The translations under genes were made by a program, and so were the position numbers. 64,000 bases of DNA from Patescibacteria group bacterium (GTDB lineage: Bacteria; Patescibacteriota; Patescibacteriia; Patescibacteriales; JBAZCA01): contig JBAZUF010000004.1 of the NCBI GenBank assembly GCA_041661505.1, positions 4,861 through 68,860 on the forward strand, in the 5' to 3' direction. This document shows positions 8,721-34,570 of this stretch, piece by piece. Position 1 is the first letter of the stretch. Each line of letters begins with the position of its first letter. Under the pieces are notes generated by a model. That model made no database searches. It was not told the origin of the DNA and saw nothing but the letters and a program-made list of their open reading frames with translations.

Positions 8721-8721
8721 T

Positions 8722-15505: not shown

Positions 15506-15551
15506 ATAATAATGGATGCCGGAATTCTCTTTCGTGGAATTCCCGCCCGCC

Positions 15552-16799: not shown

Positions 16800-16805
16800 A
16801 TTTTT

Positions 16806-17471
16806 TTATTCCGCGATTATATTTTTCATAAGCAGTTTCATTTTATCATTACTTTTTTTTCCGGGATAGTCTTCAACTCCCTGCGATACATCGATTATTT
16901 CCGGTTTGAGTTTATTAATATATGAATCTATATTCAAAGGGCTTATGCCGCCGGCCAGGATTAAAGGCCAGCCCAGTTTTCTTAGCCGGGTGAAAATTTT
17001 GTAATTTTCGAATTTTATCTTTTTTCCCCCGGCTTTATCTTCCGCGCTGGAAGCGTCCAGAAGAAATTTATCAATTTTTCCCAGGTATTTTTCAAGCTCC
17101 GTTTTTTTATCTTTTTCGTTTTCCTCCCCTTTTATTTTAAATGATTTCCAGACTTCGATATTTTTTTTAAACCGGCTGCAAAATTCCGGCGCCTCATCGC
17201 CGTGGAATTGCAAAACATCAACCAATCCGCTTGACGCTAATTTAAGCAGTTTTGACTCTTCCATGTTAACGGTAACGGCAACGATCTTTGGAAAATTTTT
17301 TGACACTGATTTAAGAGTTTTTATTTCTTCTGCCAGTTTCAGAAACTTGCCAATCGAAACAGATCTTGGGCTTTTGGGAAAATCAACAATAAAACCAAGA
17401 TAGCCGGCGCCCCGCGCTATGGCGTTCTTCGCGTCTTCCAAATTAGTAATTCCGCAAAATTTTACTTTCAT
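16806..17471 (-). CDS. trpF: phosphoribosylanthranilate isomerase
   Basis: MKVKFCGITNLEDA N-terminus; position between trpC and trpB. Confidence 0.85.
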   Translation of the reverse strand: MKVKFCGITNLEDAKNAIARGAGYLGFIVDFPKSPRSVSIGKFLKLAEEIKTLKSVSKNFPKIVAVTVNMEESKLLKLASSGLVDVLQFHGDEAPEFCSRFKKNIEVWKSFKIKGEENEKDKKTELEKYLGKIDKFLLDASSAEDKAGGKKIKFENYKIFTRLRKLGWPLILAGGISPLNIDSYINKLKPEIIDVSQGVEDYPGKKSNDKMKLLMKNIIAE

Positions 17472-18328: not shown

Positions 18329-18378
18329 AAAGATATCTGGATAATTTAATGCGGCCTGGCCGCTCCGGCCAGGCAGGC

Positions 18379-19392
18379 CTATACTTTGTTTGAAATCTCA
18401 ATAAAGTCTTTAAGCTTGCTAAGAGCTTTTCCCGATTCAATCATATCTTTCGCCAATTTTATCCCTTCTTCCATTTTTCCGGCTTTCCCAAAAGCGAGCA
18501 TGCCCGCGGCCGAATTTAGAAGTACGGCGTTTAACTGGGCTTCGGTTGCCTTGCCATTTAAGACGTTTAAGAATATTTTGGCGTTTTGATCCGCGCCGCC
18601 GCCTTTTATTTCCTCTATATTATACAGCTTTAAGCCAAAATCGCGAGGATTTATTTCGCATCGCGCGGCCCGGCCATTTTCATAAGTATAAAGCTCTGTA
18701 TCGCCTCCGATGCTCACTTCGTCTAAACCTTCTTTTCCGTGAACTAGAATTACTTTTTTAGCGCCGGTCTGTATCAAAGTTTTGGCGATTATTCCGGCTT
18801 TGGACGCGTCCGCCAATCCAATCAGCTGATGGGTGGCTTGGGCGGGATTCAGCATTGGGCCTAAAATATTAAAGTATGTTTTTTTCCCGTATTCGGCCCG
18901 CGCGTCTTTAACATGCCTCAAGGCTGGATGGAAATTCGGCGCGAACATGAATACGATGCCGGCTTCTTTTAAGCATTCTTTCGCCTGGTCCGGATCAAGA
19001 TTTATTTTCACGCCCAGTTTTTCCAATACGTCGGCCGAACCGCATTCGCTTGAAGCGGCCCGGTTGCCGTGCTTAGCCACCGGAATTCCCGCGGCCGCGC
19101 AAACTATCGCGGAAACCGTGGAAATGTTAAAAGTACTGAACCCGTCTCCGCCGGTTCCGCAGTTATCCAGCGTATCGAAATCTATTTTTACCCTGGCCAT
19201 TTTTTTCCGCGTCGCTTCGACAATTCCCGCGAGCTCCTCTTCGGTCATTTCTTTTTCCTCGAAAGATTTGAAAATTCCAATAATTTCATCTTTAGCCAAT
19301 TGTCCTTCTATGATGTTCATCTGCATTTCGCATGCTTGTTCACGGGTGAGATTTTTTTTGCCTTTCAGCAGTTTTAAAATTTCATTTATCAT
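18379..19392 (-). CDS. trpD: anthranilate phosphoribosyltransferase
   Basis: DNCGTGGDGFSTFNIST and KHGNRAASS motifs. Confidence 0.9.
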   Translation of the reverse strand: MINEILKLLKGKKNLTREQACEMQMNIIEGQLAKDEIIGIFKSFEEKEMTEEELAGIVEATRKKMARVKIDFDTLDNCGTGGDGFSTFNISTVSAIVCAAAGIPVAKHGNRAASSECGSADVLEKLGVKINLDPDQAKECLKEAGIVFMFAPNFHPALRHVKDARAEYGKKTYFNILGPMLNPAQATHQLIGLADASKAGIIAKTLIQTGAKKVILVHGKEGLDEVSIGGDTELYTYENGRAARCEINPRDFGLKLYNIEEIKGGGADQNAKIFLNVLNGKATEAQLNAVLLNSAAGMLAFGKAGKMEEGIKLAKDMIESGKALSKLKDFIEISNKV

Positions 19393-19397
19393 AAAAA

Positions 19398-20012
19398 TTA
19401 TTTATCTCCTAAAATAAAATTTTTAAGCAGTATTTTTCCGCCTTCAGTGGCGAAAGATTCCGGGTGGAATTGGATTCCGCAGATTGGATATTTTTTGTGC
19501 TTTAGCCCCATAATTTCGCCGGTATCGGCGGCGCGGGCGGTTATTGCAAGGCATGAGGGAAGGGATTTAGCATCGGCTACAAGAGAATGGTAGCGCATGA
19601 CTTCAAGGTTTTGGGGCAGGCCGCGGAACAACCCTTTAGAGTCATGCATTATCCGGCTTACTTTTCCGTGCATCGGCCGCTTGGCTCTTATGACTTTTCC
19701 CCCGCAGTAATGGGCGATGCCTTGCATGCCCAGGCAAACGCCTAAAACCGGAATGGTTTTTCCCAGCCGGGTTATAACCTCGGCGCACACCCCGAAATAA
19801 GCCGGTTCGGACGGATCGCCGGGGCCGGGGGAAATTACTATTTTATCAAAGCCGCTTTTTTCAATCTGTCCGGCGGTAATTTCGCTGTTCCTTTTTACTA
19901 TAAGCTCAAAGGGCCGGTTTTCGGCTTCTAAAATTTCGCCGATATACTGGTAAAGGTTGTAAGTAAAGGAATCGTAATTGTCGATTATCAGGATTTTCAT
20001 AGAATTATTCAA
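19398..20012 (-). CDS. trpG: anthranilate synthase component II (glutamine amidotransferase)
   Basis: Class I GATase (GVCLGMQ, QFHPES). Overlaps trpE by 8 nt. Confidence 0.9.
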   Translation of the reverse strand: MNNSMKILIIDNYDSFTYNLYQYIGEILEAENRPFELIVKRNSEITAGQIEKSGFDKIVISPGPGDPSEPAYFGVCAEVITRLGKTIPVLGVCLGMQGIAHYCGGKVIRAKRPMHGKVSRIMHDSKGLFRGLPQNLEVMRYHSLVADAKSLPSCLAITARAADTGEIMGLKHKKYPICGIQFHPESFATEGGKILLKNFILGDK

Positions 20013-21417
20013 ATTCTTTTAGAACTTTCTTCATCGCGAAAAGCTTACTTTTAATTTCGGCGTATTCTTTTCCCGGTTTTGAGTCATAAACAATCCCGCC
20101 GCCGGTCTGGGCGTAGCCCTTATTTTTGTAAATGAATAATGACCTGATGGGAATGGCAAAAGTACATTCGCCGGAAAAGCCGAAATGCCCGACCGCGCCG
20201 CCGTAAGGGCCGCGCGCCTCATTTTCCTCGCGCTCGATTATTTTCATCGCTTCGATTTTTGGCGCGCCAGTCAAGGTTCCGGCCGGGAAATTGGCGGCCA
20301 GGGCGGAAAAGGCGTCTTCGCCTTCCCGGATGATGCCGGCCACTTCTGAAGAAATATGCTGGACGTGGCTGAATTTTTTTACATCCATGGCGTTTTTCAC
20401 TTTGACGGAACCGAACCGGGCGACCCGGCCGATGTCGTTTCTGTGCAAGTCGATTAGCATTGAATGTTCGGCGATTTCTTTCGGATCGGATAAAAGTCGG
20501 CGGGTAAGTTTTAAATCTTCGGCCCGGCTGGTCCCGCGAGCGGCCGTCCCGGCCAAGGGAAAAGTTTCCATTTCCCCCTCTCTTAACCTGAATAAAAGCT
20601 CGGGCGATGCGCCGATTATTTTTTCCGGACCGAATTTGAGGTAAAACATGTGGGGCGAAGGATTGACCTTCCGCAGACTTTCATAAATTAAAATATCATC
20701 TCCCCTTATTTCAAATTCGCTTTTAAACCCGGCCACGCACTGGAAGATTTTTCCCTCGGTTATGTCTTTTTTTATCCTTTTTACCATCGCCTCATGCTCT
20801 TTTTTGGTTTTTGTGTCCCGGATGAATTTTACCTTAAGTTTTTTCGGGCCGGAATTTTTTACCGCTGCGCCGCCGCCCTTTTTGCCGAAGGCCATTTTTT
20901 TTATCAAGGGCGCGCGGTTTTGGCCGTAGTGAAAGTAAAAAGATTCGCCCGTCATTTTATCGTAAACCAATCCGTCGGTGTAAACCCCGAATTTAAACTG
21001 GCTAAAATTTTTATGCGGCGCTAGATTAATAGCCGGCTCAAAATAATTCATGCCTTCGTAGGCGATATAGCCGATAAGGCCTCCGGCGTATTGGCGGGAA
21101 ATTACGTTATTGGGAACAATTTTCCTTAAGGCGTAATACGGATTTTCGACCCGGAATTTTTTAGTTTCAATCTTGCCGTTTTTGGCGCGGCAGTTTGTAA
21201 GGCTTAATTCATTTCCGGCGGCGGCCAAAATTGCTTCCGGGCCGAACCCGATTACGTGATAGCGCGAGCGGCCGCCCTCTTCGCCCAAGGATTCGAGAAT
21301 GAAGCAGTCTTCGAAATTTTCTTCAATTTTTTTGAATAGCTCAAAAAAATCAGCGTCCTCGGCGAATTTTATATAGCTCGGTTTTTTATTCTTAAGTTTT
21401 ATTTTCGGCAGCGTCAT
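20005..21417 (-). CDS. trpE: anthranilate synthase component I
   Basis: Chorismate-binding enzyme (FPAGTLTGAPK, GPYGGAVG). First gene after the T-box leader. Confidence 0.9.
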   Translation of the reverse strand: MTLPKIKLKNKKPSYIKFAEDADFFELFKKIEENFEDCFILESLGEEGGRSRYHVIGFGPEAILAAAGNELSLTNCRAKNGKIETKKFRVENPYYALRKIVPNNVISRQYAGGLIGYIAYEGMNYFEPAINLAPHKNFSQFKFGVYTDGLVYDKMTGESFYFHYGQNRAPLIKKMAFGKKGGGAAVKNSGPKKLKVKFIRDTKTKKEHEAMVKRIKKDITEGKIFQCVAGFKSEFEIRGDDILIYESLRKVNPSPHMFYLKFGPEKIIGASPELLFRLREGEMETFPLAGTAARGTSRAEDLKLTRRLLSDPKEIAEHSMLIDLHRNDIGRVARFGSVKVKNAMDVKKFSHVQHISSEVAGIIREGEDAFSALAANFPAGTLTGAPKIEAMKIIEREENEARGPYGGAVGHFGFSGECTFAIPIRSLFIYKNKGYAQTGGGIVYDSKPGKEYAEIKSKLFAMKKVLKEFE

Positions 21418-21502
21418 AAGATTAATTTGTTTTTTCTCGTTCGCATGCGGCGGGTAATTCAGGAAAAGATGTTGCCAGCTTTTTTATCCGGCCGCTGGAA
21501 TT

Positions 21503-21781
21503 AAAAAACCTCCCATCCTTTTATCTAAATAAAATATTTTAGATAAAAGGACGAGAGGTTATCCCGCGGTGCCACCCTTTTTTCCTCCGCCCGAGGCGGA
21601 GAACGCTTACTGACTCGTAAATTGAAATCAGTTATCCTCTGGTTACGGAGGAAGCCGGGCCCTCACTAGCGCAAGAGCCGCCTTTCCCGTCCTGTATTGC
21701 GCAAGACGGGGTAAACTAGACCCAGTCCCTTGGCAGAACCAAGGGATCCAGTTTTAGGCTTTATAGTTGTTAAATTGCTTA
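21503..21781 (-). promoter_or_regulatory. T-box leader (tRNA-sensing riboswitch) of the trp operon, with a terminator
   Basis: The minus strand reads AAAAAAGGGUGGCACCGCGGGAUAACCUCUCGUCC, with the T-box core at 21563-21577. It is preceded by a Stem-III-like hairpin CUCCGCC-UCG-GGCGGAG. A long terminator hairpin at 21509-21558 ends in U6. Confidence 0.85.
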
Positions 21782-22402: not shown

Positions 22403-22436
22403 AAAAAAACCGCCCGACTTTGATGGGGCGATTTTT
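22403..22436 (-). terminator. terminator after aroC (usable on both strands)
   Basis: Stem cgccc/gggcg (22411-22415/22426-22430). The minus strand has a U7 tract (22409..22403) and the plus strand has atttttgtttt. Confidence 0.55.
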
Positions 22437-22490: not shown

Positions 22491-23564
22491 TTATTTATAG
22501 GCTTTATAGCGCAGGTAATGGTCAAGGATTACCAAGGCGGCCATAGCCTCGACGATGGGAACCGCCCGGGGAACGATGCAGGGGTCGTGCCGGCCGGCGG
22601 CCTTTAAAGTGATGGATTTATTTTGGCGGTTGAGCGTTTCTTGGGCTTTGGCTATTGTTGAAGTCGGCTTAAAGGCCACCCGGAAATAAATATTTTCGCC
22701 GTTTGATATTCCGCCCAAGGTTCCGCCGGAGAAATTGGTGCGGGTTTTGACTTGGCCTTTTTCCGCGTAAAACGAGTCGTTGTGTTCGCTCCCGCGCATT
22801 TCCACGGCGCAAAAGCCTGACCCGATTTCAAAACCTTTGGCGGCATTGATCCCGAGCATAGCCTTGGCCAGATCGGCCGGCAATTTATCAAATACCGGAC
22901 TGCCTAAGCCGACCGGGGCATTCTTAATTACCGCCGATACGCTTCCGCCGATTGAGTCGCCTTCCGCTTTAACGGCTTCGATAAGGGCAATCATTTTTTT
23001 CGCCGCTGTTTCATCCGGGCATCTTACCGGATTGGCTTCGATTTTTTTTAAGCTTACTTTGGAATAATCAACTTCGGATTTTACGCTTCCTACCTGATCG
23101 ACAAAGCCTATAATTTCAACGCAAAATTTTTCCTTTAAATATTTTTTGGCGATGGCTCCGGCCGCCACCTGGGCTAATGTCGTCCTGGCCGACGCCCGGC
23201 CGCCGCCGCGCCATTCGCGGTTTCCGTATTTGGCCGAATAAGTAAAATCCGCGTGCCCCGGGCGGTAAACTTCTTTTAAGTTTTCGTAGTCTTCCGAACG
23301 GGCATCGCTATTCTTAACCAGTAAAAGAATCGGAGCGCCGGTGGTCTTGCCGCCGGTAACGCCCGATAAAATTTGGATTTTATCTTCTTCTTTCCTTTGG
23401 GTGGTAATTTTACTTTGCCCGGGCTTTCTCCGGTCAAGCTCTTTTTGGATGTAAGCTTCAGTTATTTCCAATCCGGCCGGACAGCCGTCAATTATGGCGC
23501 CTACGCCTGCTCCGTGCGATTCGCCGAAAGTAGTAATAGTAAATAATTTTCCAAAAGTATTCAT
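22491..23564 (-). CDS. aroC: chorismate synthase
   Basis: [18 protein letters not shown] and [13 protein letters not shown] motifs. Confidence 0.95.
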
Positions 23565-23591
23565 AGTTTTTCTCGATTGGATATTAATATG

Positions 23592-24263
23592 TTATTTAAT
23601 GATGCCCATTTTCCGGTAAACATTTTTCAATTCTTTAACCGTAAGCTGGCCCGGCGCGGTAGTTTTTCCGATAGAAGCGAAAGTGAGGAATCCGCCCCAA
23701 AGCGGCGATAAGAGCCGTGTAATTTTTCCTTTTTCGCCCATGCCCAAAACTATCATTTCTTGATTTTTCTTCCGGCTGGCTAGCAGTTCAAAAAGTTTTT
23801 GATTGTCTTTTTCATTATTAACCATGGTAACAATTTTCATTATATTAGCTTTGCTAACTCCCATCTTTTTCACAACATCCTTAAGCTTCGGCAAGGCCGG
23901 GGTTTTTTTAAAGTCGTGGTAGGAGCAGATTATCTTGGAACCATTCGGCCCGCCCGGAATTTTAATTTTTGAAATGGCCGGCAATTCTATGTCAACGAAA
24001 TCAAAACCGGATTTTAAAGCTGTGTTTAATATGGCGAGCCTTTCTTTTTCCGCGCCCGGAAATTTACCGCCTTCGCTTTTTTTCCGGCAGGTAAAAATGG
24101 AACTTTTTTTAACCGCTCTTTTGATGGCGGAGATATGTTCCGGCTTTAAATTTTTAATGTAATCCGCCCTTAACTCAACCCAATCAGCCTGCTTTTGGGC
24201 AATCCGCAGATTAGACAAGAACTCTTTTAAATTTTTTTCCGCAACCACCGCGCAAATTCTCAT
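23592..24263 (-). CDS. aroD: 3-dehydroquinate dehydratase, type I
   Basis: Size, operon position and a type I-like layout (VELRADY...). Confidence 0.75.
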   Translation of the reverse strand: MRICAVVAEKNLKEFLSNLRIAQKQADWVELRADYIKNLKPEHISAIKRAVKKSSIFTCRKKSEGGKFPGAEKERLAILNTALKSGFDFVDIELPAISKIKIPGGPNGSKIICSYHDFKKTPALPKLKDVVKKMGVSKANIMKIVTMVNNEKDNQKLFELLASRKKNQEMIVLGMGEKGKITRLLSPLWGGFLTFASIGKTTAPGQLTVKELKNVYRKMGIIK

Positions 24264-24282
24264 ATTAATCTTGCCGATATTA

Positions 24283-25596
24283 TTATTTTAAATTTTTAGA
24301 CAATACTTTTCTCATGGCTCGAACCGGCGCTTTTTTCCCGGTGTAATATTCAAACTGGGCCGCGCCCTGGTATAAAAGCATTTCCAGCCCAGGAATAATT
24401 TTCGCTCCTTTCTTTTTCGCGTCTTTTAATAATCTGGTTATAGGAGGCGAATAAACCGCGTCAAAAACAATTTGTCCTTTATGTAAAAACTCGGCCGGGA
24501 CCGGCGTTTTGTTAATCCGCGGCTTCATTCCGACCGGTGTCGCGTTAATAATAATGTCAAAATTATTAACCCGGTGAATTTCCGAAAAATCACAATAACT
24601 CGCCTTGAATTCTTTGGCAAGTTTTCCGGCCCTTTCCGCGTCCCGCCCGAATACGGTTAGCTTCGCCCCTTTTCTTGTTACGCCGTAAGCGATAGCCCGG
24701 GAAGCGCCGCCGGAACCCAGCAAAGCTACTTTTTTATTTTTCAGCCGGGTCATTTTTTCCAAAGGAATCACCGCTCCCTGCCAATCAGTATTATAGCCCG
24801 TCAACCGGCCTTTGTCATTCACTACCGTATTCACCGCTTTGATTTTTTTTGCTACCGGGTCGATTTTATCAAGGAATTTCATTACGGCTTCCTTGTGCGG
24901 CATGGTGCAGGTTAAGCCGCGGATGCCGGATATTCTAACCGCTTTTACCGCGTTTTTTACTTCGGGTTTTTTTATCCGGGCGGATAAAAAAATAAACCGA
25001 TTGTCGATTTTAAGCGCCCGGTAGGCGGCGTTATGCATGGCGGGCGAAAGAGAATGGGCGATCGGGTCGCCGATTATCAGGCAGACTTTTTTCAAATCTT
25101 TTTCCAGGACGGCTATAATTTTCTCGCTAATCGCGTTAAGATCGGGGTTTTTTATACAGTCAATAACTTCATCCGCGTACAATGAATATAGCGGGCTTCG
25201 CAATTTAAAAAGTTTTCTGGCCGATTCCCGGTCCTTAAATAGCGGACGGGTTTTGTCGTTTTTCAGCCTTTTTTCGATATTTTTAAACCCATCTTTTAAA
25301 TAGATGATTTTTCCGTTCTTTTTCAGATTGCGGATATTTTTTTCATTCATAACAATGCCTCCGCCCGTGGAAATTATTTTTTTATCAATATCCGACAATT
25401 CCTTTGCCACCCGGGCTTCCAGCGGCCGGAAAGTTTTTTCCCCGCCTTTCTCAAAAATTTCATTGATGTTTTCTCTCCGGCTTTTTTTAACAATCAAATC
25501 ATCCATTTCAACCGCCTGAAATCCCAGCCTTTTAGCCAGGATTTTTGACAGGCTGGTTTTTCCCGAACCCATAAAACCGATTAAGACGATGTTCAT
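24283..25596 (-). CDS. aroKE: bifunctional shikimate kinase / shikimate 5-dehydrogenase
   Basis: The N-terminus has the P-loop GFMGSGKT of shikimate kinase. The C-terminal ~270 aa match AroE (IIGDPIAHSLSPAMHNAA, NTDWQG, LGSGGASRA). Confidence 0.85.
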   Translation of the reverse strand: MNIVLIGFMGSGKTSLSKILAKRLGFQAVEMDDLIVKKSRRENINEIFEKGGEKTFRPLEARVAKELSDIDKKIISTGGGIVMNEKNIRNLKKNGKIIYLKDGFKNIEKRLKNDKTRPLFKDRESARKLFKLRSPLYSLYADEVIDCIKNPDLNAISEKIIAVLEKDLKKVCLIIGDPIAHSLSPAMHNAAYRALKIDNRFIFLSARIKKPEVKNAVKAVRISGIRGLTCTMPHKEAVMKFLDKIDPVAKKIKAVNTVVNDKGRLTGYNTDWQGAVIPLEKMTRLKNKKVALLGSGGASRAIAYGVTRKGAKLTVFGRDAERAGKLAKEFKASYCDFSEIHRVNNFDIIINATPVGMKPRINKTPVPAEFLHKGQIVFDAVYSPPITRLLKDAKKKGAKIIPGLEMLLYQGAAQFEYYTGKKAPVRAMRKVLSKNLK

Positions 25597-25622
25597 ATAA
25601 TAAGGTTAAGCACTTTACTCTA

Positions 25623-26909
25623 TCAGGCTAATTTAATTCCCGCGCTTTTAATTATATTCCAGAATTCAGGGAATGATTTTGACACGACTTCGGGATTTTT
25701 AATAACCATGCCCGGGATTTTCGCGCCGGCTATGGCAAAGGACATTGCCATGCGGTGATCGTTGTAGGTGCTGATTTTCGCGCCGCGAGGATTTCCGCCC
25801 TGGATGGTTATCGAATCATGGCTGATAGCGGAGCGGATGCCCATTTTTTTGAGTTCGGTTTTTAACGCGCTTAACCGATCGGTTTCTTTGTGGCGCAGGG
25901 TGGACAAGCCGGTAATTTTAGTAGATCCTTTTGAAAAAGCCGCTACAACCGCTAGCGTCTGGGCCGTATCAGGCATATCTTCCATGTTAACCTTAATTCC
26001 TTTTAGAGTTGCCGGCCCCTTAACTTCAATCCAGTTTTCTTTTTTATTTTTTATGACTTTGGCGCCCATGCGTTTTAGTAAATCGGGAAATTTAGCGTCG
26101 CCCTGCGATGAGTTAGGCGGAATATTTTTTACTTTGATTCGGCTGCCGGTAATGGAAGCCAATGCCCAGAAATAACTGGCACCCGACGCGTCGCCCTCAA
26201 TCCGGTATTGGCCGGGACTATAGCGCGCGACCGGGCTTACCGAGTATCTTTTATAGTTATTATTTTTTACAAAAACTCCATGCTCTTTCAGGCTCTCCAG
26301 AGTCATGTCGATAAAAGATTTGGAGACCTGTTTGCCTAAAACTTTTATATTTAATCCCCGTTTTAATGCCGGCGCGATTAAGAGAAGGGAAGTGAAAAAC
26401 TGGCTGGATACTTTGCCGGGCATTTTTACCTCTCCTCCGGTGATTTTACCCCCGATAATTTTTATGGGCGGACAATTTTTTTCTGCCAGGTATTTTATTT
26501 CCGCTCCAAGCGACCCCAAAGCTTTTACTAAATCGCCGATCGGCCGCTTTCTCATGCGGCGAGAACCGTCTAATGTTATTTCTCCGGGTGTGAGGACGGA
26601 AAGGGCGGCAAGGAACCGGAAAGTAGTTCCGGCTGGACCGACATTAATGCGGCCGTTAAATGGTTTAAAGCGGCCGCCATTTCCTACAATTTTAGTTTTG
26701 TCCCCAACTTTAGTTATCCGGATTCCTAGTTTTTTTAAGGCGTTAATCATCACCCGGGTGTCGTCTGAAAGGGAAACGCCCCGTAAAATCGTCCGGCCGT
26801 CCGTAAGCGCGGCCATAACCAAAGCCCGGTTAGAAAAACTTTTGGAACCGGGCATTATAATTGATTTATTGATTAATTTTTTCAAGGGTTGGATTTTGTA
26901 TGGCCGCAT
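25623..26909 (-). CDS. aroA: 3-phosphoshikimate 1-carboxyvinyltransferase (EPSP synthase)
   Basis: PGSKSFSNRALVMAAL and LRHKETDRL motifs. Confidence 0.95.
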   Translation of the reverse strand: MRPYKIQPLKKLINKSIIMPGSKSFSNRALVMAALTDGRTILRGVSLSDDTRVMINALKKLGIRITKVGDKTKIVGNGGRFKPFNGRINVGPAGTTFRFLAALSVLTPGEITLDGSRRMRKRPIGDLVKALGSLGAEIKYLAEKNCPPIKIIGGKITGGEVKMPGKVSSQFFTSLLLIAPALKRGLNIKVLGKQVSKSFIDMTLESLKEHGVFVKNNNYKRYSVSPVARYSPGQYRIEGDASGASYFWALASITGSRIKVKNIPPNSSQGDAKFPDLLKRMGAKVIKNKKENWIEVKGPATLKGIKVNMEDMPDTAQTLAVVAAFSKGSTKITGLSTLRHKETDRLSALKTELKKMGIRSAISHDSITIQGGNPRGAKISTYNDHRMAMSFAIAGAKIPGMVIKNPEVVSKSFPEFWNIIKSAGIKLA

Positions 26910-26981
26910 TTTACAATGTAATAGCTGTATTATAATGGCCTGCAGTGAAGTATTGCTGTACCCGCGCCATGCTTATTGAGA

Positions 26982-28070
26982 TTAACTTATGTAGCCTTTT
27001 TTTACCAATAGTTCGGCGTTTAAAATTCCTCCTCCGGCGGCGCCGCGAACCGTGTTATGGCTTATAGCGGCGAATTTATAATCAAAAATTTTGCATTTTC
27101 GGAGGCGTCCGATGGTTACGGCCATGCCTTTCTCCGCGTCCCGGTCTTTTCTCGGCTGGGGCCGGTTGTCTTCCCGGCGGTAGATGATTGGCCGCAAAGG
27201 CGCGAAAGGGAGTTCTAATTCCTGCGGAAGGGCTCTGAATTTTTGCCAGATTTTTATTATTTCTTCACGCTTGGGCTTCTTGCCGTTAAACTTAAAACTG
27301 ACGCAGGCCAGATGTCCGTCCGCTACCGGCACTCGGTTGCAATGGGCGGAAATTTTCAAAAAGTTGGTATTGGCGAATTTTCCTTTTTTAATGGAGCCTA
27401 ATATTTTCAAAGGCTCTTCTTCGGTTTTATCTTCCTCGCCCGCTATAAAGGGAACGACATTGCCGATCATGTCTAGTGACGGGACGCCCGGATAACCGGC
27501 GCCGGAAACAGCCTGCAGGGTGGCAATAAAGATTTTTTCTATGCGGTAGCCCGCCTGAATTATTGCGAAAATCGGAGTAATATAGCTTTGCAAACTGCAA
27601 TTGGGCTTGGTAACGATAAACCCTTTTTTCCAGCCCCGGTTTATTTTCTGGACCGGAATTATTTCAAGATGCCGGTGATTTATTTCCGGGATGAGCATCG
27701 GAACGTCTTCGGTCCAGCGGTTGGCCGAGGCGTTCGATACGACCGGAATTCCGGCGGCCGCGTATTTCTCCTCCATTTTTTTAATAAGATTTTTATCCGG
27801 CAGTTCAAAGGCCGAGAAAACAAAATCACAGCGCTTTTTTGCCGCCTTGATATTGGCAACATCCGCGACAATCAAGGATTTTACGTTTTCAGGGATCGGG
27901 ACAGGCATTTGCCAGCGGCCTGCCACCGATCTTTCATAGCTAACGCCGGCGGAATTAGCCGAAGCCGCGACGTGAGTTACCGTAAACCAGGGGTGGTTGC
28001 GAAGCAGTTTTATGTAATTTTGGCCTACCATGCCGGTAGCCCCGAGAATCCCGACTTTGAATTTTTTCAT
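26982..28070 (-). CDS. asd: aspartate-semialdehyde dehydrogenase
   Basis: GILGATGMVGQ, NCSLQ active-site region, SGAGYPG. The start was chosen at MKKFKVGILG, an internal Met of the ORF that ends at 28115. Confidence 0.85.
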   Translation of the reverse strand: MKKFKVGILGATGMVGQNYIKLLRNHPWFTVTHVAASANSAGVSYERSVAGRWQMPVPIPENVKSLIVADVANIKAAKKRCDFVFSAFELPDKNLIKKMEEKYAAAGIPVVSNASANRWTEDVPMLIPEINHRHLEIIPVQKINRGWKKGFIVTKPNCSLQSYITPIFAIIQAGYRIEKIFIATLQAVSGAGYPGVPSLDMIGNVVPFIAGEEDKTEEEPLKILGSIKKGKFANTNFLKISAHCNRVPVADGHLACVSFKFNGKKPKREEIIKIWQKFRALPQELELPFAPLRPIIYRREDNRPQPRKDRDAEKGMAVTIGRLRKCKIFDYKFAAISHNTVRGAAGGGILNAELLVKKGYIS

Positions 28071-28139
28071 AAACGAAATAACCGAGCCCCGCCAGCTCGC
28101 TGGCAGGACAGGCAAAGGGCATAAAAATGCCTTAATATT

Positions 28140-29531
28140 TTATTTTATGAATTCTTTGTGCAGGGCCCGGACCATTTTTTCCATTTCTTCGGTTTTTACG
28201 ACCGCTTCCAGCCGGACGCAATTTTTGTAAGGAAAAGCGCCGAGCTCGGTATAGGGGCAAAGACGGATCAGGATGTCATTAAAACGGTTTACGTCTTTCC
28301 AATCAAGATTGCCGATTAAGATCACCATGTTAACCGGCGATACTTCCAGTTTTTTTACTTGCTTTTTTAGCTCGGCAATCATCTCTTCAAAGCCGTTGCC
28401 GTTATTTTCCGCCACTAAAATGAGCTTGTCCCGGGTGTTTCTGGTTATGTCCAAATTTACTTTATGGCTGGTCAAAATCCGCGTTACATTGGCCAGGTAG
28501 CCGTAATTATTCATCCGGTCATCGGTAATAATTAAGAGGGATAAGTTTTTTTTGAAGCTGACGATTTTCGCGCCCTTAACGCTTTTAATATAGGGCCCGA
28601 CTTGGGTTTTTTTAGCCGGGTCGATAATCGCCGCCACCTCGGCCGGAGTCTTAAACATTTTTACGTATTGGATGGCCTTGTCATGGATAACCTTGCCGGA
28701 TTCGGCCGCTTCAGCATAGCTTATGAATGGAACGGTTATCGCGTCTTTGGCGATTTTTGGATCAGCGGATAAAACTCCCTCCACGTCTTTCCATAAAATA
28801 ATTTTTTCCGCTTTTAAGGCCGCCCCGAGGAAGCAGGCGGTCGTATCGGTTCCGCCCCGGCCTAAAGTAGTTGTATTGCCCTCCAAAGTTTCTCCGCAAA
28901 ATCCAGGGATAACCGGAATTTCTTTGATTTTCAAAATTGTTTTTCGGGCGGATTTGGCCGAAAGATCATAATTGATGTTGGCATTTTTAAAACAATCGTC
29001 GGTGATGATGGGGATTTCTTCGGCAAACACCGCCCGGGCGGAAAACCCCCGCGACTTAAGATAATAGGAAAAGCAGACGCTCGCCAGCTTTTCGCCATAA
29101 GCCGTAATTTTATCGTCAAAAATTGGCAAGAATCCGAAGCGGAGAAGGGTGACGAGATCATTTTCGAGCTCACCGAAAACCCGATCCAGGGGCGCTTTGG
29201 CGTTTTTTCTCCAGTCCCGGGAAACGCAAACTTCTTCCAAAAGCTTCATGTGCTTTTCGTTCAAGCTATTGACGAAAGGTTTTATCAGGCTGTCGATATA
29301 TTTTTCGCTCGCTCCGCCCAGTCTTTGATTCCTTCTTATTTTTTCTTTGATATGCCCAAGAAATAAAATAATCTCGTCAGTTACTCCTTTTAGCGCTGAA
29401 ACCACTACAATCGGCCGGTAGCCGGCTTTTAGCTGTTCGGAAATCCTTTTTTCGGTATAGGGGATAAGTTTTTTTATCATTATCCCTCCGCCGAATTTAT
29501 TGACGATGATTTTAGTCCCGGATTTTGGCAT
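28140..29531 (-). CDS. aspartate kinase
   Basis: Amino-acid kinase fold (IVNKFGGG, TLGRGGTDTTA) with a C-terminal ACT-like region. Confidence 0.85.
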   Translation of the reverse strand: MPKSGTKIIVNKFGGGIMIKKLIPYTEKRISEQLKAGYRPIVVVSALKGVTDEIILFLGHIKEKIRRNQRLGGASEKYIDSLIKPFVNSLNEKHMKLLEEVCVSRDWRKNAKAPLDRVFGELENDLVTLLRFGFLPIFDDKITAYGEKLASVCFSYYLKSRGFSARAVFAEEIPIITDDCFKNANINYDLSAKSARKTILKIKEIPVIPGFCGETLEGNTTTLGRGGTDTTACFLGAALKAEKIILWKDVEGVLSADPKIAKDAITVPFISYAEAAESGKVIHDKAIQYVKMFKTPAEVAAIIDPAKKTQVGPYIKSVKGAKIVSFKKNLSLLIITDDRMNNYGYLANVTRILTSHKVNLDITRNTRDKLILVAENNGNGFEEMIAELKKQVKKLEVSPVNMVILIGNLDWKDVNRFNDILIRLCPYTELGAFPYKNCVRLEAVVKTEEMEKMVRALHKEFIK

Positions 29532-29571
29532 AATTTATTTTTCCAAAAATTATTATTGGCGCGATTTAATC

Positions 29572-30582
29572 TTATTTTTCGGTTATGGTTTCTTTGATTT
29601 TTTGGCCAAAGTGGCGGCCCATCTCTTCTTCCTGGATAAAAGCCAAAACCCGGTCGCCCGGCTTTAGCTTGGTTACGGAAACAGGACTGCCGTCATTTTT
29701 TGTAAGGCGGATAGTCTCGGCATTTTGCATAACTAAAGAAAGCTCCCGGCCGCCCGCAATACCGCGGACAATGAGCATCGGCCGCCGCTCGATTTTCACC
29801 CGGCCGACAATCACTTCCTCGGTATTGCCTTTTTGGTCAACTACCAAAGCCTTGAGGCCGCTTTTTAATTCTCCCAAATACTTGGTCTTATCGCCGGGCA
29901 TCCGGATATAGGCATGGGTGCCGCCGGCGTTAACCCGAAAGGGGCGGGGGTCGCAATAAGGAGTCTCCACATTTTCATTATATACTAAAAACATAGCTTT
30001 GGAAGAGTCCCCCACTAGCATGCCCTGGCCGGGGGATAAGGTGGAAGCAGTATCAACTACTACCCGGTCGCCCAGGCCCAGCTGTTCAATGCTTATGATT
30101 TCCGCCTCGCAAAGCTCTAGTTTTTCATTTTGGATTTCTTTTATCAGTTTGGCTGTTTTTTTTATTTCATTTAAATCGCCGGTTTCCAAAAGAATTCCGT
30201 CAGAACCGATTTCCAAAGTTAGAAAAGCCAGTTTAGCCTCATTATAATTTCTGACGTGCTGGATTAAATTGGAAGTTTTGGAAATTAAATTTTCCAGAGG
30301 GATGATAGTCCAGTCAAAATTTCTTATGATGACCGGAATCTTTCCCTTATAGGCCACCACCCGGTTTTCGCATTCCTTGTTCTCTATCTTCACTTCATCG
30401 GCATTTTCTCCGATGATGAAATCAGCCGGAGCTTTGGTAGAAATAATTTTTGCCCGGGAAAGTTCCCTGGTTTTTTCTATATCTTTTTCCGCGACATAAA
30501 TCGCTTCAAATCCCGACTCGATCGCGGCGGTAATTAATTTTTTATCCCAGTTTGGCGGCTGGTACCAGAATTTTTTTTGCAT
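29572..30582 (-). CDS. 3-dehydroquinate synthase II (archaeal type, MJ1249-like)
   Basis: The N-terminus KKFWYQPPNWDKKLITAAIESGFEAIYV and overall length match my recollection of the archaeal DHQS-II family. It is adjacent to ADH synthase. Confidence 0.8.
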   Translation of the reverse strand: MQKKFWYQPPNWDKKLITAAIESGFEAIYVAEKDIEKTRELSRAKIISTKAPADFIIGENADEVKIENKECENRVVAYKGKIPVIIRNFDWTIIPLENLISKTSNLIQHVRNYNEAKLAFLTLEIGSDGILLETGDLNEIKKTAKLIKEIQNEKLELCEAEIISIEQLGLGDRVVVDTASTLSPGQGMLVGDSSKAMFLVYNENVETPYCDPRPFRVNAGGTHAYIRMPGDKTKYLGELKSGLKALVVDQKGNTEEVIVGRVKIERRPMLIVRGIAGGRELSLVMQNAETIRLTKNDGSPVSVTKLKPGDRVLAFIQEEEMGRHFGQKIKETITEK

Positions 30583-30631
30583 ATGCGAGGCGCCATTAAT
30601 TATGGCTTAATAAGGCAATCATGGAGCCTGG

Positions 30632-31420
30632 TTATCTTTTTAAGTTTACCTCAATTTTAGAAGCATTGTAAACCGCGTCTTTAATTTTTTCAAGCATGCC
30701 CGAAACGTCCTCGGACTGGAAGACATTTCTTCCGACCGAGACTCCGGCCGCGCCGACCCGGACGCAATCCCGGATTGAGGAAAGCATTATTTCTTCCGAA
30801 CCCTTGGCTCCGCCGGCGATTACTACCGGAATCGGACAGCCTTCGACCACCTCGCGAAAACTTTCCGCGTCGCCGGTAAAAGGGACTTTGACGATGTCGG
30901 CGCCAAGCTCGGCCGCTACCCGGGCGGCATGCTTAACCCGGGCGGTATCCCGGTAATGGACAATCTTTCCGTCAATCATGGTCCGCGGATACATCATGGC
31001 GAGTAAAGGCAGGCCTTCTTCCTGGCATTCTCTTGCCACGGTTCCCAAATCTTTTAACATTTCCCCTTCGTGCTCGTTTCCTAAATTAAGATGGATGGAA
31101 ACGCCCTGGGCGCCCAGTTCTTTAACTTCGCGGGCGGTAGCAATTAAAACTTTTCGAAGCGAGCCGGAAAGGCCGGTGGAAGCCGAAATATGAATAAAGA
31201 CCGGCAAATCGCCGATAACATCCTTGTATAATTTATAAATCCCTTTGTGGATAACAATGGCATCGGCTCCGCCGGCCTTAACCTTTTTGATTATTTCATC
31301 CATCTTGATGAGGCCGGGAATAGGCCCGTCGGTAACGCCATGATCCATCGGAACAATAACTGTCCGCTTGGAAATGGGGTTGATAATTTTTGACAATAGC
31401 TCACGCTTGGTGTTAGTCAT
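30632..31420 (-). CDS. 2-amino-3,7-dideoxy-D-threo-hept-6-ulosonate (ADH) synthase, MJ0400-like class I aldolase
   Basis: RTVIVPMDHGVTDGPIPGL, LLAMMYPR, AELGADIVKVPFTGD and GAAGVSVGRNVFQ closely parallel the archaeal enzyme as I remember it. Confidence 0.8.
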   Translation of the reverse strand: MTNTKRELLSKIINPISKRTVIVPMDHGVTDGPIPGLIKMDEIIKKVKAGGADAIVIHKGIYKLYKDVIGDLPVFIHISASTGLSGSLRKVLIATAREVKELGAQGVSIHLNLGNEHEGEMLKDLGTVARECQEEGLPLLAMMYPRTMIDGKIVHYRDTARVKHAARVAAELGADIVKVPFTGDAESFREVVEGCPIPVVIAGGAKGSEEIMLSSIRDCVRVGAAGVSVGRNVFQSEDVSGMLEKIKDAVYNASKIEVNLKR

Positions 31421-31469: not shown

Positions 31470-31553
31470 AAAAAAACCGGCTGTCTTTCAAGGCCGGGTT
31501 ATATTCTTAAGTAATTTATTAGTCTTTAATTTATTCTGCAAAAAGCCGGCCTT
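31470..31553 (-). promoter_or_regulatory. aromatic-operon attenuator: antiterminator 31553..31546:31497..31490 versus terminator 31497..31477 plus U7
   Basis: On the minus strand AAGGCCGG, inside the leader ORF, is the perfect complement of CCGGCCUU. The latter overlaps the terminator stem CCGGC/GCCGG, which is followed by UUUUUUU (31476..31470). Confidence 0.7.
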
Positions 31554-31609
31554 TTAATAAGGTTAAAATAGAAATAAAAGTAGCTAAACCAGATTTGGCC
31601 GAATTTCAT
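31526..31609 (-). CDS. aromatic leader peptide MKFGQIWFSYFYFYFNLIKRPAFCRIN
   Basis: 27 codons, 10 of them aromatic, with the contiguous run W-F-S-Y-F-Y-F-Y-F. It lies between the promoter and the first gene of the aromatic operon. Confidence 0.8.
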   Translation of the reverse strand: MKFGQIWFSYFYFYFNLIKRPAFCRIN

Positions 31610-31638: not shown

Positions 31639-31667
31639 ATAATACACATTTTCAAAAGACGTGTCAA
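31639..31667 (-). promoter_or_regulatory. promoter TTGACA-17-TATTAT
   Basis: On the minus strand the -35 hexamer is at 31667..31662 and the -10 hexamer at 31644..31639. Confidence 0.6.
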
Positions 31668-32970: not shown

Positions 32971-33552
32971 ATGAGCGCCAAAATAATTATCGGGGTTTCA
33001 GGAAACAAGGGAAGTTTTACCGAAGAGGCCGCCAAGCACTACTGCACCGAAGAAAAGATTCAAAATTATGAGCTTGCCTATCTCACTTCCGTAGAAAATG
33101 TTTTGCGCGATCTGGGTAAAGGAAAAATCGATAAAGGCGTTTTTCCGATCGAAAACTCGACCGGAGGAGTTGTTATTGAGGCGGTGGAAGCTATGGCCCG
33201 CTATATATTTGCCATCGAAAAAATGTTCGAAATTGAGATAAAGATGAATCTGCTTATGAAAAAAGGAATAAAGCCGGAAGATATAAAATCAATTACTTCG
33301 CACCAGCAGGCGCTGCGTCAATGCCGGATGTATTTAAAAAGAAAATATCCCAAAGCCGAACTCTGCGAATATCCGGATACGGCGACGGCCGCCAAGGATT
33401 TAGCCGACGGAGTATTGCCGGAAACTACCGCCGTAATCGCCCCGAAAATCTGCGCCGAATTGTATGATTTAGAATTGGCCGAAGAGGGCATCCAGGATTT
33501 AAAATTTAATTTTACGTCTTTTATCGTAGCCGCGAACGAGCATGCCTATTAA
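32971..33552 (+). CDS. pheA: prephenate dehydratase, catalytic domain only (no ACT domain)
   Basis: GNKGSFTEEAA, FPIENSTGGVV and NFTSFIV correspond to PDT motifs. At 193 aa it ends where the ACT domain would begin. Confidence 0.8.
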   Translation: MSAKIIIGVSGNKGSFTEEAAKHYCTEEKIQNYELAYLTSVENVLRDLGKGKIDKGVFPIENSTGGVVIEAVEAMARYIFAIEKMFEIEIKMNLLMKKGIKPEDIKSITSHQQALRQCRMYLKRKYPKAELCEYPDTATAAKDLADGVLPETTAVIAPKICAELYDLELAEEGIQDLKFNFTSFIVAANEHAY

Positions 33553-34570
33553 AAAAACAGTTTCCATAATCGGGTTCGGACGCTTCGGCCAGTTAACCGC
33601 AAGCGTCTTTTCGAAACGGGCGGAAGTTTTAATATATGAAAGCCGCGTTAAAAATGACCATAAACTCAAAGCGAAAAAAATCGGGGCAAAAATCGTAAAT
33701 TTAAAATTAGCGGCGAGCGCGGATTTGATAATTTTAGCAGTTCCTATTTCTGCGGCCGAAAAAGTGATTAAACAAATCGCTCCGTATGTCCGCCCCGGAT
33801 CTTTAATTGTCGACACCTGTTCAGTAAAAGCATACCCTTGCGGCTGGCTAAAAAAATATTTGCCGAAAAGCGTAGAAATCATGGGTACCCATCCGCAATT
33901 CGGCCCGGTTACGACCAAGTTTAATTTTGAAAAACAATCCTATAAGTTAAAAGGCCTGCAAATCGTTTTATGTCCGATAAGAATCGGCGGCGCGCGCCTT
34001 GGGGCGGTGAAAAATTTTTTAACCGGCTTGGAACTGAAAGTTATCATAACCACCCCGGAAGACCATGACCGCCAAAACGCTTATACTCTCGGCCTCGTCC
34101 ATTTTGTCGGGCGGGCTTTGCTCGGCGCCGGCGCCCGCGAACAGGAAATATATACTCCCGGCTATACGGACTTGCTTTCCATCCTGCCGCATACCACTTC
34201 CGATAACTGGCAATTGTTTTACGACATGCACAATTATAATCCATACGCCGAATCAGTGCGCCTTAAATTTATGGGAGCCTGCGAATCAATGGACGAGCGG
34301 ATTAGAAAAGCTAATGTAAAAGACGAACTGGGTTTCCGGCGGGAGGCGATTAATAAAATCGACTGCCGGGTTTTTAAATTATTAAAAGACCGTTTCCGGC
34401 AAGTTAGGGCGATAGGAAAAATTAAGGGTAAAAAAGGCTTGCCAATCCAGGACAAAAAAAGGGAAGAAGATATAATAAAAGATAAAGTGAAAAAATTCAA
34501 GATGGACAAGAATTTTGTTGAAGGGATTTACCATTCAATATTTAAAGAAGCTTACCGGAAACAGAAATAA
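33542..34570 (+). CDS. tyrA: prephenate dehydrogenase with a C-terminal AroQ-type chorismate mutase
   Basis: Rossmann motif IIGFGRFGQ and GTHPQFGP. The C-terminal ~85 aa (REAINKIDCRVFKLLKDRF...DKKREEDII) look like a type II chorismate mutase. Confidence 0.8.
   Translation: MPIKKTVSIIGFGRFGQLTASVFSKRAEVLIYESRVKNDHKLKAKKIGAKIVNLKLAASADLIILAVPISAAEKVIKQIAPYVRPGSLIVDTCSVKAYPCGWLKKYLPKSVEIMGTHPQFGPVTTKFNFEKQSYKLKGLQIVLCPIRIGGARLGAVKNFLTGLELKVIITTPEDHDRQNAYTLGLVHFVGRALLGAGAREQEIYTPGYTDLLSILPHTTSDNWQLFYDMHNYNPYAESVRLKFMGACESMDERIRKANVKDELGFRREAINKIDCRVFKLLKDRFRQVRAIGKIKGKKGLPIQDKKREEDIIKDKVKKFKMDKNFVEGIYHSIFKEAYRKQK

Follow-up and report, generated by a model that had tools for sequence, protein, structure and literature searches.

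The operon described here probably represents a self-contained pathway to chorismate in a member of the Patescibacteria (CPR), with a DAHP-independent entry, control by attenuation, and aspartate kinase (AK) and asd genes as a dedicated source of L-aspartate semialdehyde (ASA). New are the leader attenuator, a CPR-restricted module consisting of the genes for ADH synthase (ADHS), 3-dehydroquinate synthase II (DHQS-II), AK and asd, and the occurrence of AK-asd in two contexts, aro and polyamine; the ADHS/DHQS-II route as such is known in bacteria.

Eight closely packed genes extend on the minus strand from position 31420 to position 22491 of the window, i.e. the entire 64-kb stretch of DNA that was analysed. 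They are arranged in the order ADHS, DHQS-II, AK, asd, aroA, aroK-aroE, aroD and aroC, with gaps of 19–72 nt between the listed open reading frames (ORFs). Profile matches identify aroA as an EPSP synthase gene (25623..26909, minus strand), aroK-aroE as a fusion of shikimate kinase and shikimate dehydrogenase (24283..25596, minus), aroD as a type I dehydroquinate dehydratase gene (23592..24263, minus) and aroC as a chorismate synthase gene (22491..23564, minus). According to these family assignments every step from dehydroquinate (DHQ) to chorismate is encoded in the operon. Extent and gene families thus agree with a preliminary description of this DNA, which had also stated that the operon lacks DAHP synthase and a classical aroB. 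The latter statement holds for the whole 64-kb window, where no ORF of at least 150 amino acids matched the Pfam families of DAHP synthase and DHQ_synthase (AroB). A terminator-like hairpin after aroC (22403..22430, minus; CGCCC/GGGCG with a 10-nt loop, followed by seven Ts), which was read from the sequence by eye and lies outside the limits of the hairpin scan, probably marks the operon end. The same operon is present in identical form in two further assemblies, L001 (ENA) and L002 (Logan), which excludes an assembly accident; the best match among species-representative genomes in the DHQS-II scan amounts to 69%.

Other genes for aromatic amino acid synthesis are located on both sides of the operon. 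Downstream, trpE-G-D-C-F-B-A (14699..21697, minus; Rfam and profiles) are preceded by a T-box-like leader (21544–21697, with a terminator at 21510–21557) that scores 36.9 bits (E 2.7e-6), below the Rfam gathering score of 93. This element (RF00230) is found only before trpE and not upstream of ADHS. Divergent from the aro operon are pheA, encoding prephenate dehydratase, and a fusion of tyrA with a chorismate mutase domain (32971..34570, plus strand; profile matches).

The aro operon itself appears to be switched by a leader rich in Phe, Tyr and Trp codons. A putative σ70-like promoter (TTGACA-17 nt-TATTAT; 31639..31667, minus; 11 of 12 consensus matches) lies upstream of an ORF of 27 codons (31526..31609, minus) that was detected by a small-ORF scan and by inspection of related loci. 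The predicted peptide, MKFGQIWFSYFYFYFNLIKRPAFCRIN, contains 10 aromatic residues, eight of them in one run of nine (WFSYFYFYF), and among the 717 small ATG ORFs of the window it is the only one with at least seven aromatic residues in nine. Leader ORFs rich in F, Y and W, homologous or analogous, are followed by a terminator at all nine distinct related loci. In the window, sequence and folding place this attenuator terminator at 31470..31497 (minus), where CCGGC (31497–31493) and GCCGG (31481–31477) enclose an 11-nt loop and precede seven Ts. The antiterminator, AAGGCCGG, is located at the 3' end of the leader ORF and is likewise complementary to the 5' arm of this terminator. While the stem in the window is short (5 bp, −7.8 kcal/mol), the relatives combine the same attenuator layout with other sequences and with stems of greater stability (−9.6 to −15.1 kcal/mol). 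Complementarity between the 5' arm of the terminator and a segment at the ORF end, or shortly past it, is seen in the window and in most relatives (L004 not clearly among them); in L003 the antiterminator pairing is absent from the MFE fold. Because the complementary segments differ in sequence between loci, the antiterminator and terminator pairings are compensatory. Compared with shuffled sequence, the fold of the complete 230-nt leader is not significantly stable (z = −0.74), and the case for an attenuator therefore rests on comparative conservation. No Shine-Dalgarno sequence is evident ahead of the leader ORF, and Rfam searches were negative for riboswitches and T-boxes upstream of the aro operon (gathering score, whole window; E ≤ 1 over 31350–33050).

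From this arrangement we infer ribosome-mediated attenuation as the mechanism of operon control. With charged Phe, Tyr and Trp tRNAs in plentiful supply, a ribosome would finish the FYFYF leader and cover the antiterminator strand, so that the terminator could form. If these tRNAs were scarce, the ribosome would stall at the aromatic codons, the antiterminator would pair with the 5' arm of the terminator, and the operon would be transcribed. Aromatic amino acid control had been claimed in the preliminary description, which had not seen this feature; the conserved leader-peptide attenuator now gives the claim a concrete basis. As in the pheA, trp and his leaders of enterobacteria, a short ORF of regulatory codons and an intrinsic terminator precede the first structural gene, and the antiterminator overlaps the ORF end. 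Unlike those leaders, the one described here is reduced to a minimal three segments without an obvious 1:2 pause hairpin, has a mixed Phe/Tyr/Trp run, and lacks a clear Shine-Dalgarno sequence. We know of no description of leader-peptide attenuation in the CPR lineage.

Profiles, motifs and tree position assign the third gene (28140..29531, minus) to a CPR-specific, aro-linked clade of aspartate kinases with a degenerate ACT-like C-terminus. The protein matches PF00696 with 120 bits and TIGR00657 with 211.7 bits (cutoff 208.7; aligned through residue 462), and the motifs KFGG, GRGGTD and WKDV-GV are invariant across the AK family alignment. Its C-terminus scores 17.2 bits (ACT_7) and 16.2 bits (ACT_9) against a cutoff of 27. 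The adjoining asd gene (26982..28070, minus) is of the archaeal/eukaryal (archaeal/fungal) type, based on TIGR00978 (387.8 bits; cutoff 301.2) and on alignment with the M. jannaschii ASADH (1YS4; 316 bits), with conservation of the PNCS and DGH motifs that contain the catalytic Cys and His. Its true ATG is at 28070, whereas the mechanically derived ORF runs to 28115. With this correction the spacer between AK and asd measures 69 nt; it contains two hairpins (28086..28132, minus; hairpin scan), one of them with a 10-bp stem (28109–28086).

The order ADHS-DHQSII-AK-asd is kept in nine distinct loci, among which the remaining aro genes are rearranged: dehydroquinase is of type I or type II, aroK and aroE are fused or separate, and aro genes are located upstream or downstream. 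In the genome scan this module was confined to one clade of the Patescibacteria, and neither AK nor asd is present in the 77 DHQS-II loci of other groups (Desulfobacterota, Aquificota, Spirochaetota and archaea). A survey of 70 AK-family loci showed linkage to aro genes in 13 and, in 42, to genes for carboxyspermidine dehydrogenase (CASDH), carboxyspermidine decarboxylase (CASDC), agmatinase or arginine decarboxylase; asd follows AK wherever downstream sequence is available. The aro-linked cassette is always located immediately after DHQS-II. From its two contexts, aro and carboxyspermidine, we conclude that AK-asd behaves as an ASA-supply cassette for whichever pathway uses ASA. Placement of the two genes in the operon is both conserved and selected. 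The view that it fits ASA supply to ADHS, put forward in the preliminary description, is thus strengthened both by the ninefold conservation of the module and by the presence of the pair beside another ASA consumer elsewhere. In a neighbour-joining tree the aro-linked AKs are monophyletic and stand apart from the polyamine-linked ones, which suggests specialisation. Between the two contexts asd is 73% identical and AK only 47%. It is the regulatory C-terminal region that accounts for the extra divergence of the aro-linked AK: identity is 39% to AKs of the polyamine-linked type and 52% inside the aro clade, the catalytic core being 59–60% identical in both comparisons.

The polyamine-linked cassette of related CPR genomes, a paralogous AK-asd pair, would serve carboxyspermidine (polyamine) synthesis. 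The CASDH/CASDC pathway (PMC10413350) resembles the system studied here in that it consumes ASA and in that a homologous AK-asd adjoins the genes for CASDH, CASDC, agmatinase and arginine decarboxylase. It differs in being another ASA-using pathway with an AK clade of its own, and none of these genes is present in the window. A wider and more tentative reading, though to us a quite plausible one, is that AK-asd of Patescibacteria has been uncoupled from the aspartate-family amino acids and has become a portable ASA cassette. It may have been specialised at least twice, once for spermidine and once for ADHS/DHQS-II, the latter together with divergence of the regulatory domain of AK and ribosome-mediated attenuation by Phe/Tyr/Trp.

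Alternatively, AK and asd may be the only, general-purpose aspartate-pathway genes of this genome, which came to lie with the aro genes while also supplying the synthesis of threonine, lysine, DAP or polyamines. Products of the aspartate family would then be subject to aromatic control, a concern voiced in the preliminary description. Small size and a scarcity of paralogues are typical of CPR genomes. Neither in the window nor in the approximately 7–8 kb past each edge (about 80 kb altogether), where only unrelated genes were found, is there a second AK or asd. Furthermore, a threonine-synthase-like (thrC-like) gene at 6870–8720 implies another ASA-derived need, and AK and asd may thus serve more than aromatic synthesis. 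We regard such a general role as rather unlikely in view of the separate clade of the aro-linked AKs and the invariable position of the cassette behind DHQS-II; moreover, a general pathway would be ill served by Phe/Tyr/Trp attenuation. We therefore prefer the interpretation that AK and asd are dedicated to the aromatic route.

Another possibility is a mis-binned or chimeric contig from outside the CPR, in which case the CPR context would be an artefact. An amino acid biosynthesis cluster of about 35 kb is indeed atypical for CPR, and one relative of the DnaB protein encoded on the same contig carries a Planctomycetes label. However, the best named relatives of this DnaB (72–88% identity) are from Patescibacteria, Falkowbacteria and Parcubacteria MAGs of several studies, relatives of DHQS-II and AK from independent projects, including GW2011_GWA2_44_12, carry CPR labels, and the same arrangement was assembled independently. 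We thus consider an origin outside the CPR improbable.

The entry into the pathway is determined by the first two genes. ADHS (AroA'; 30632..31420, minus) is a predicted transaldolase of the class I aldolase fold according to profile scores and alignment with MJ0400. The DeoC/LacD class I aldolase fold is matched over the full length (PF01791; 180.8 bits), and the best NCBIfam match is NF005556 (284 bits; cutoff 241). The equivalog TIGR01949 scores 282.9 bits, 17 bits under its cutoff of 299.45. Asp33 and the Schiff base-forming Lys184 (MJ0400 numbering), whose roles in MJ0400 are outlined in PMC4162585, are kept, and the PMDHG and GADIVK segments align. DHQS-II (AroB'; 29572..30582, minus) matches PF01959 with 381.5 bits over residues 3–336 and the equivalog NF002627 with 409.2 bits (cutoff 392); the PDB contains no solved homologue. 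These scores uphold the proposed entry via ADHS and DHQS-II. DHQS-II is widespread in bacteria, with at least 597 confirmed matches in species-representative genomes. In a rough neighbour-joining tree (a distance method, applied to the nearest 80 loci only) the CPR clade is surrounded by sequences from bacteria, those from archaea being dispersed, and a recent transfer from archaea, which had been considered in the preliminary description, finds no support there.

If the ADHS homologue were an ordinary class I FBP aldolase, DAHP synthase and AroB encoded elsewhere would carry the flux and DHQS-II would be accessory. Such a role would be in line with the missed TIGR01949 cutoff and with the Halobacterium homologue, for which FBP aldolase activity was shown and no DKFP transaldolase activity was found, as summarised in PMC4162585; moreover, the sequence analysed is that of the window and its flanks. 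Yet the match to MJ0400 (2QJG; 235.9 bits) is twice that to an archaeal class I FBP aldolase (1OJX; 110.9 bits), LsrF scores 101.6 bits, and the archaeal FBA model reaches 144 against a cutoff of 430. In addition, ADHS and DHQS-II occur as a pair in most of the DHQS-II loci that were examined, and the aromatic supercluster (aro, trp, phe and tyr together) is without DAHP synthase or AroB. A plain FBP aldolase, very unlikely on these model scores and this context, was rejected. The same kinds of evidence led us to dismiss as hardly credible a GriI/GriH-type identity (BagB/BagC, ClxE/ClxB; 3,4-AHBA synthases of the same two protein families that also use ASA), with formation of 3-amino-4-hydroxybenzoate from ASA and DHAP or of another aminobenzoate and not of dehydroquinate, since matches to the NCBIfam models BagB_FevI and BagC_FevH stay far under the cutoffs (181.9 vs 500 and 161.1 vs 750), DHQS-II passes its equivalog and is not of the NF041224 (GriH/BagC 3,4-AHBA synthase) subtype (161 vs 750), and the Phe/Tyr/Trp-rich leader and the shared operon with aroD, aroE, aroK, aroA and aroC, next to trp, pheA and tyrA, point to primary aromatic amino acid synthesis and not to a natural-product cluster.

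In the pathway we propose, AK and asd would convert aspartate to ASA, ADHS would combine ASA with a C3 unit from a keto-sugar phosphate, and DHQS-II would deaminate and cyclise the product to 3-dehydroquinate, from which the aroD, aroE, aroK, aroA and aroC products would lead to chorismate. The model for this route is the M. jannaschii pathway of MJ0400 (ADHS) and MJ1249 (DHQS-II) (White 2004, cited in PMC4162585 and PMC1173090). [quoted passage not shown] Common to both systems are the two families at the head, the residues Asp33 and Lys184, ASA as the expected C4 substrate, and canonical steps after DHQ. By contrast, none of the five archaeal loci examined includes AK and asd in its cluster, and the host here is a CPR bacterium. 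No conserved DKFP-forming candidate adjoins the four-gene module, the neighbours of which vary by locus: an argB-like gene in the window, pheA in L087 and L090, and in L085 a 435-aa gene for which Pfam gives no more than a faint match to AP_endonuc_2.

A bacterial precedent is the aromatic supraoperon aroA'>aroB'>...>trp of Desulfovibrio vulgaris, described in 2005 (PMC1173090). It is likewise headed by aroA' and aroB', has the trp operon next, and is predicted to be controlled by an attenuator. It differs in that it is without AK or asd and includes pheA and tyrA but not the full aroD-E-K-A-C set, whereas in the window pheA and tyrA are oriented divergently from the aro operon, and trp is preceded by a T-box-like leader of its own. 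The operon-level coupling, which had been called notable for a bacterium, is thus new with respect to the AK-asd linkage but not with respect to ADHS and DHQS-II in a bacterial aromatic operon. Neither a linkage of AK and asd to aroA'/aroB' nor the DHQS-II route in CPR was encountered in searches of the open-access literature, which is weak evidence of novelty.

Because an entire clade keeps the genes for ASA formation within the operon, the module provides comparative-genomic evidence, independent of archaeal biochemistry, for ASA as the physiological substrate of the bacterial ADHS/DHQS-II route. It also makes more pressing the question of how bacteria obtain the C3/C6 donor, be it DKFP or another compound, and the four-gene module with its leader represents a clean unit for complementation in E. 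coli aro mutants. If our proposals are correct, the sugar-phosphate donor would be made by an enzyme yet to be recognised in any bacterium, and the leader-peptide attenuator would imply coupled transcription-translation control in a CPR lineage. CPR bacteria are usually described as auxotrophic symbionts. Some of them seem to keep a compact, regulated aromatic pathway, and certain CPR bacteria near the Falkowbacteria would then be genuine aromatic (and branched-chain) prototrophs that rely on a DAHP-independent route.

The eight open reading frames at 22491–31420 lie on the minus strand with short spacers between them, and their order as given in the preliminary description is correct because the Pfam and NCBIfam identities match it in transcription order. 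The first gene encodes an aldolase of the DeoC fold, best matched by the models of ADH synthase (ADHS; NF005556, 284 bits, cutoff 241; TIGR01949, 282.9 bits, slightly below its cutoff of 299.45). It is followed by genes for 3-dehydroquinate synthase II (DHQS-II; PF01959, 381.5 bits; NF002627, 409 versus a cutoff of 392), aspartate kinase (AK; TIGR00657, 211.7 versus 208.7) and aspartate-semialdehyde dehydrogenase of the archaeal/eukaryal (archaeal/fungal) type (asd; TIGR00978, 387.8 versus 301.2), and then by aroA, an aroK-aroE fusion, a type I aroD and aroC, with a terminator-like hairpin 3' of the latter. For AK, the position of KFGG, invariant in the family, at residues 12–15 identifies the 463-residue form as correct, and asd starts at the ATG at 28070, not at the TTG at 28115. 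The operon was recovered in two other assemblies as well. That it includes neither a DAHP synthase gene nor aroB was likewise borne out, as neither family has a match among window ORFs of at least 150 amino acids. Two hairpins are present in the 69-nt AK-asd spacer (28086–28132, minus strand), one being AAGGCAT-TTTT-ATGCCTT and the other a GC-rich 10-bp stem followed by a weak T-tract; they may represent an internal partial terminator or an element of mRNA processing or stability.

The assignment of the first two genes to the archaeal entry route stood up to profile searches. DHQS-II was confirmed by PF01959 and NF002627, and ADHS is nearer to Methanocaldococcus jannaschii ADHS (MJ0400; PDB 2QJG, 235.9 bits) than to archaeal class I FBP aldolase (about 110 bits) or LsrF (about 101 bits). 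ADHS has conserved residues at the positions of Asp33 and Lys184 of MJ0400, which act as proton acceptor and Schiff base residue, respectively (PMC4162585). A solved relative of DHQS-II was sought and none was found. The best structural match of asd is the M. jannaschii enzyme (1YS4, 316 bits), to which it aligns at both the PNCS and the DGH motif; AK is divergent, its top solved relative being M. jannaschii AK (115 bits), and its C-terminal 164 residues gave only sub-threshold ACT matches. A GriI/GriH-type identity of the first two genes, that is, 3,4-AHBA synthases, was rejected, the BagB and BagC models scoring far under their cutoffs.

The AK-asd pair also occurs in other contexts. On another CPR contig of the same sample (ENA k141_1165549, 6372–15570), an AK homologue adjoins asd, and divergent from the pair are genes for a saccharopine-dehydrogenase-family protein resembling carboxyspermidine dehydrogenase (CASDH), a carboxy(nor)spermidine-decarboxylase-like protein, an arginase-family protein and an Orn/Arg decarboxylase. 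Scanning JGI metagenomes with a profile of AK yielded 79 loci, and among the 70 with a near-full AK the gene was polyamine-linked in 42, aro-linked in 13 and otherwise placed in four, with upstream sequence too short in the remaining 11; asd lies 3' of AK in all cases with downstream sequence. The 42 polyamine-linked loci, which are found among L084–L165, have AK-asd divergent from the same four kinds of genes, a putative compact spermidine cluster with its own supply of aspartate semialdehyde (ASA). Since the aminopropyl donor of CASDH is ASA (PMC10413350), ASA consumption is common to the aro and polyamine contexts, the strongest indication that the role of AK and asd in the aro operon is to feed ADH synthase. 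Another ASA-derived need is plausible because the window contains a thrC-like gene.

A midpoint-rooted neighbour-joining tree groups the aro-linked AKs in a single clade apart from the polyamine-linked ones. Identity between the two contexts is 73% for asd and 47% for AK. The C-terminal region of aro-linked AKs is 39% identical to that of polyamine-linked AKs versus 52% within the aro clade, and the catalytic core shows 59–60% in both comparisons. This C-terminal divergence would fit a changed allosteric effector, although the sequence pattern is only suggestive.

Among species-representative genomes, a DHQS-II profile scan gave at least 597 confirmed matches. The best 80 loci, taken for comparison, belong to Desulfobacterota, Aquificota, Spirochaetota, Pseudomonadota, Omnitrophota, archaea and CPR-labelled MAGs. 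With the window proteins as tblastn queries, AK and asd were detected immediately 3' of ADHS-DHQSII only in L003, L004 and L005, the window's nearest relatives in this set, and in none of the remaining 77, which include five archaeal and about 30 Desulfobacterota loci. Nearly all AK homologues are labelled Parcubacteria, Paceibacterota, Moranbacteria or Nomurabacteria. Parcubacteria GW2011_GWA2_44_12 has the order ADHS-DHQSII-AK-asd-aroA-aroK-aroQ-aroE...aroC-pheA, so public databases have contained the module since 2015. Gracilibacteria-labelled MAGs (L006–L009, L011) carry lone DHQS-II homologues (55–57% identity), and tblastn detected none of ADHS, AK, asd and the aro genes within 10 kb of them; an alternative genetic code could have hampered this search, or the enzyme could have a different role. 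An ADHS-DHQSII-AK arrangement was also seen in L160 (Ga0190363_1001987, 6175–8785), whose DHQS-II groups close to an Altiarchaeota sequence and outside the main CPR clade, whose AK is matched better by a polyamine-type query than by the window AK, and which has its own F/Y-rich leader (MRKRKFINNQFYFGFFGPLLRG) and strong attenuator. The same module may have been assembled independently there.

Upstream of ADHS, on the minus strand, a promoter consensus match (TTGACA-17-TATTAT, 31667–31639) precedes a leader ORF of 27 codons (MKFGQIWFSYFYFYFNLIKRPAFCRIN, 31609–31526) and a terminator (CCGGC-loop-GCCGG-T7, 31497–31470). The 3' end of the ORF, AAGGCCGG, could pair with the 5' arm of the terminator, and among 717 small ATG ORFs of the window this one alone has at least seven aromatic residues in nine. 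The window terminator stem measures 5 bp, the overall fold of the leader is non-significant, no clear Shine-Dalgarno sequence precedes the ORF, and no T-box or other Rfam element was found at this site. In all related loci having upstream sequence, a comparable ORF precedes a hairpin and T-run; besides that of L160, these ORFs are MKFGQIWFSYFYFYFTLKTRPVFCINQ in L090, MKTVQLWFSYFYFYFNLTPRPVFCIS in L087, MENIRSTSWFFSFYFFTEF in GW2011_GWA2_44_12 (L085), MKLISNTIWFSLYYFLQPTAGSEY in L131, ...NLFFSFFVFYYFFNFII in L003, a tandem pair (...FYFYFTRQCGG and ...SFYFYFYPE) in L005, and MKYTKNNQFFFYSFFSRHKR in L004, where it lies 5' of aroD, the first gene of that operon. In most loci the terminator 5' arm is complementary to a segment at or just past the ORF end while the sequences differ; complementarity was assigned by inspection only in L003 and was not established in L004. 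From this comparative pattern we read the leader as a predicted device by which ribosomes would mediate attenuation in response to Phe, Tyr and Trp; the short window stem, the non-significant fold and the lack of a clear Shine-Dalgarno sequence weaken this reading.

The preliminary description had raised transfer from archaea, and of a recent direct event there is no sign. A rough neighbour-joining tree of 86 DHQS-II sequences unites the aro-linked CPR proteins in one clade, with the lone Gracilibacteria-labelled sequences as sister and Halothiobacillus next, and the five archaeal sequences are dispersed among bacterial ones. Archaeal affinities are found in asd, which is of the archaeal/fungal type, and in AK, whose nearest solved relative is archaeal; both are part of a cassette widespread in CPR.

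The operon is part of a large amino-acid biosynthesis cluster. The window carries leuA, a leuC-leuD fusion (644 amino acids, 2965–4899, plus strand), leuB, a fusion of a threonine-synthase-like and a LeuA regulatory domain, ilvE, ilvD, ilvB and ilvC; the aro operon followed by trpEGDCFBA on the minus strand; pheA and tyrA-chorismate mutase, divergent from the aro operon, the latter having prephenate dehydrogenase extended by a chorismate mutase domain at the C-terminus (33542–34570, plus strand); and, farther along, cimA, cysK, serA, serC and a serB-like gene. The unusual 616-residue fusion (6870–8720, plus strand) consists of a threonine-synthase domain (NF006050, 318.5 versus 303) and, at the C-terminus, a LeuA allosteric/dimerisation domain, and it occupies the leu/ilv operon place expected for threonine deaminase. 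A T-box-like leader precedes trpE (21544–21697, minus strand; terminator 21510–21557), with a strong T-box/antiterminator part and Stem I mostly missing or divergent (36.9 bits, E 2.7e-6, under the Rfam gathering score of 93). The neighbouring operons for aro and trp thus seem to be controlled through different sensing mechanisms. An acetylglutamate-kinase gene located between the aro operon and pheA (31857–32672, minus strand; TIGR00761, 207.6 bits) stops prematurely through a frameshift near 31868–31872, and a one-base frame change gives back the canonical C-terminus; the 271-residue call is identical in the ENA assembly, and the gene may be a pseudogene or reflect a shared sequencing error or programmed frameshift. 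A low-G+C island (34–40%; 53873–59442, minus strand) with GmrSD-like/HNH, RhuM-family, T5orf172 and EcoRI-type adenine methylase genes and two unknown ORFs is probably an acquired restriction/defence island. Within about 7–8 kb past each window edge the genes are unrelated.

The NCBI source label reads "Patescibacteria group bacterium", and the top named relatives of DnaB (46659–48050; 72–88% identity) are in MAGs of Patescibacteria, Falkowbacteria and Parcubacteria obtained by several projects. Biosynthetic CPR are not without precedent, since tryptophan, aromatic and branched-chain pathways are encoded in some of them (Chiriac et al. 2022, PMC9166423). No description of the ADHS/DHQS-II route or the module in CPR, and nothing on AK-asd linkage to ADHS/DHQS-II, was found in the open-access literature.

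The core interpretation of the preliminary description, an aromatic operon built on the ADHS/DHQS-II route with AK and asd embedded, holds, and the finding is real. Bacterial aromatic operons headed by ADHS/DHQS-II genes are an established kind, by the account of the Desulfovibrio vulgaris supraoperon in Song et al. (PMC1173090). The present operon differs from the one described there in its embedded AK-asd cassette, its full DHQ-to-chorismate gene set, its explicit aromatic leader peptide and its CPR host. The CPR aro operon is a new variant of a known pathway arrangement, to which it adds a predicted regulatory element, and the pattern seen across its relatives is informative.
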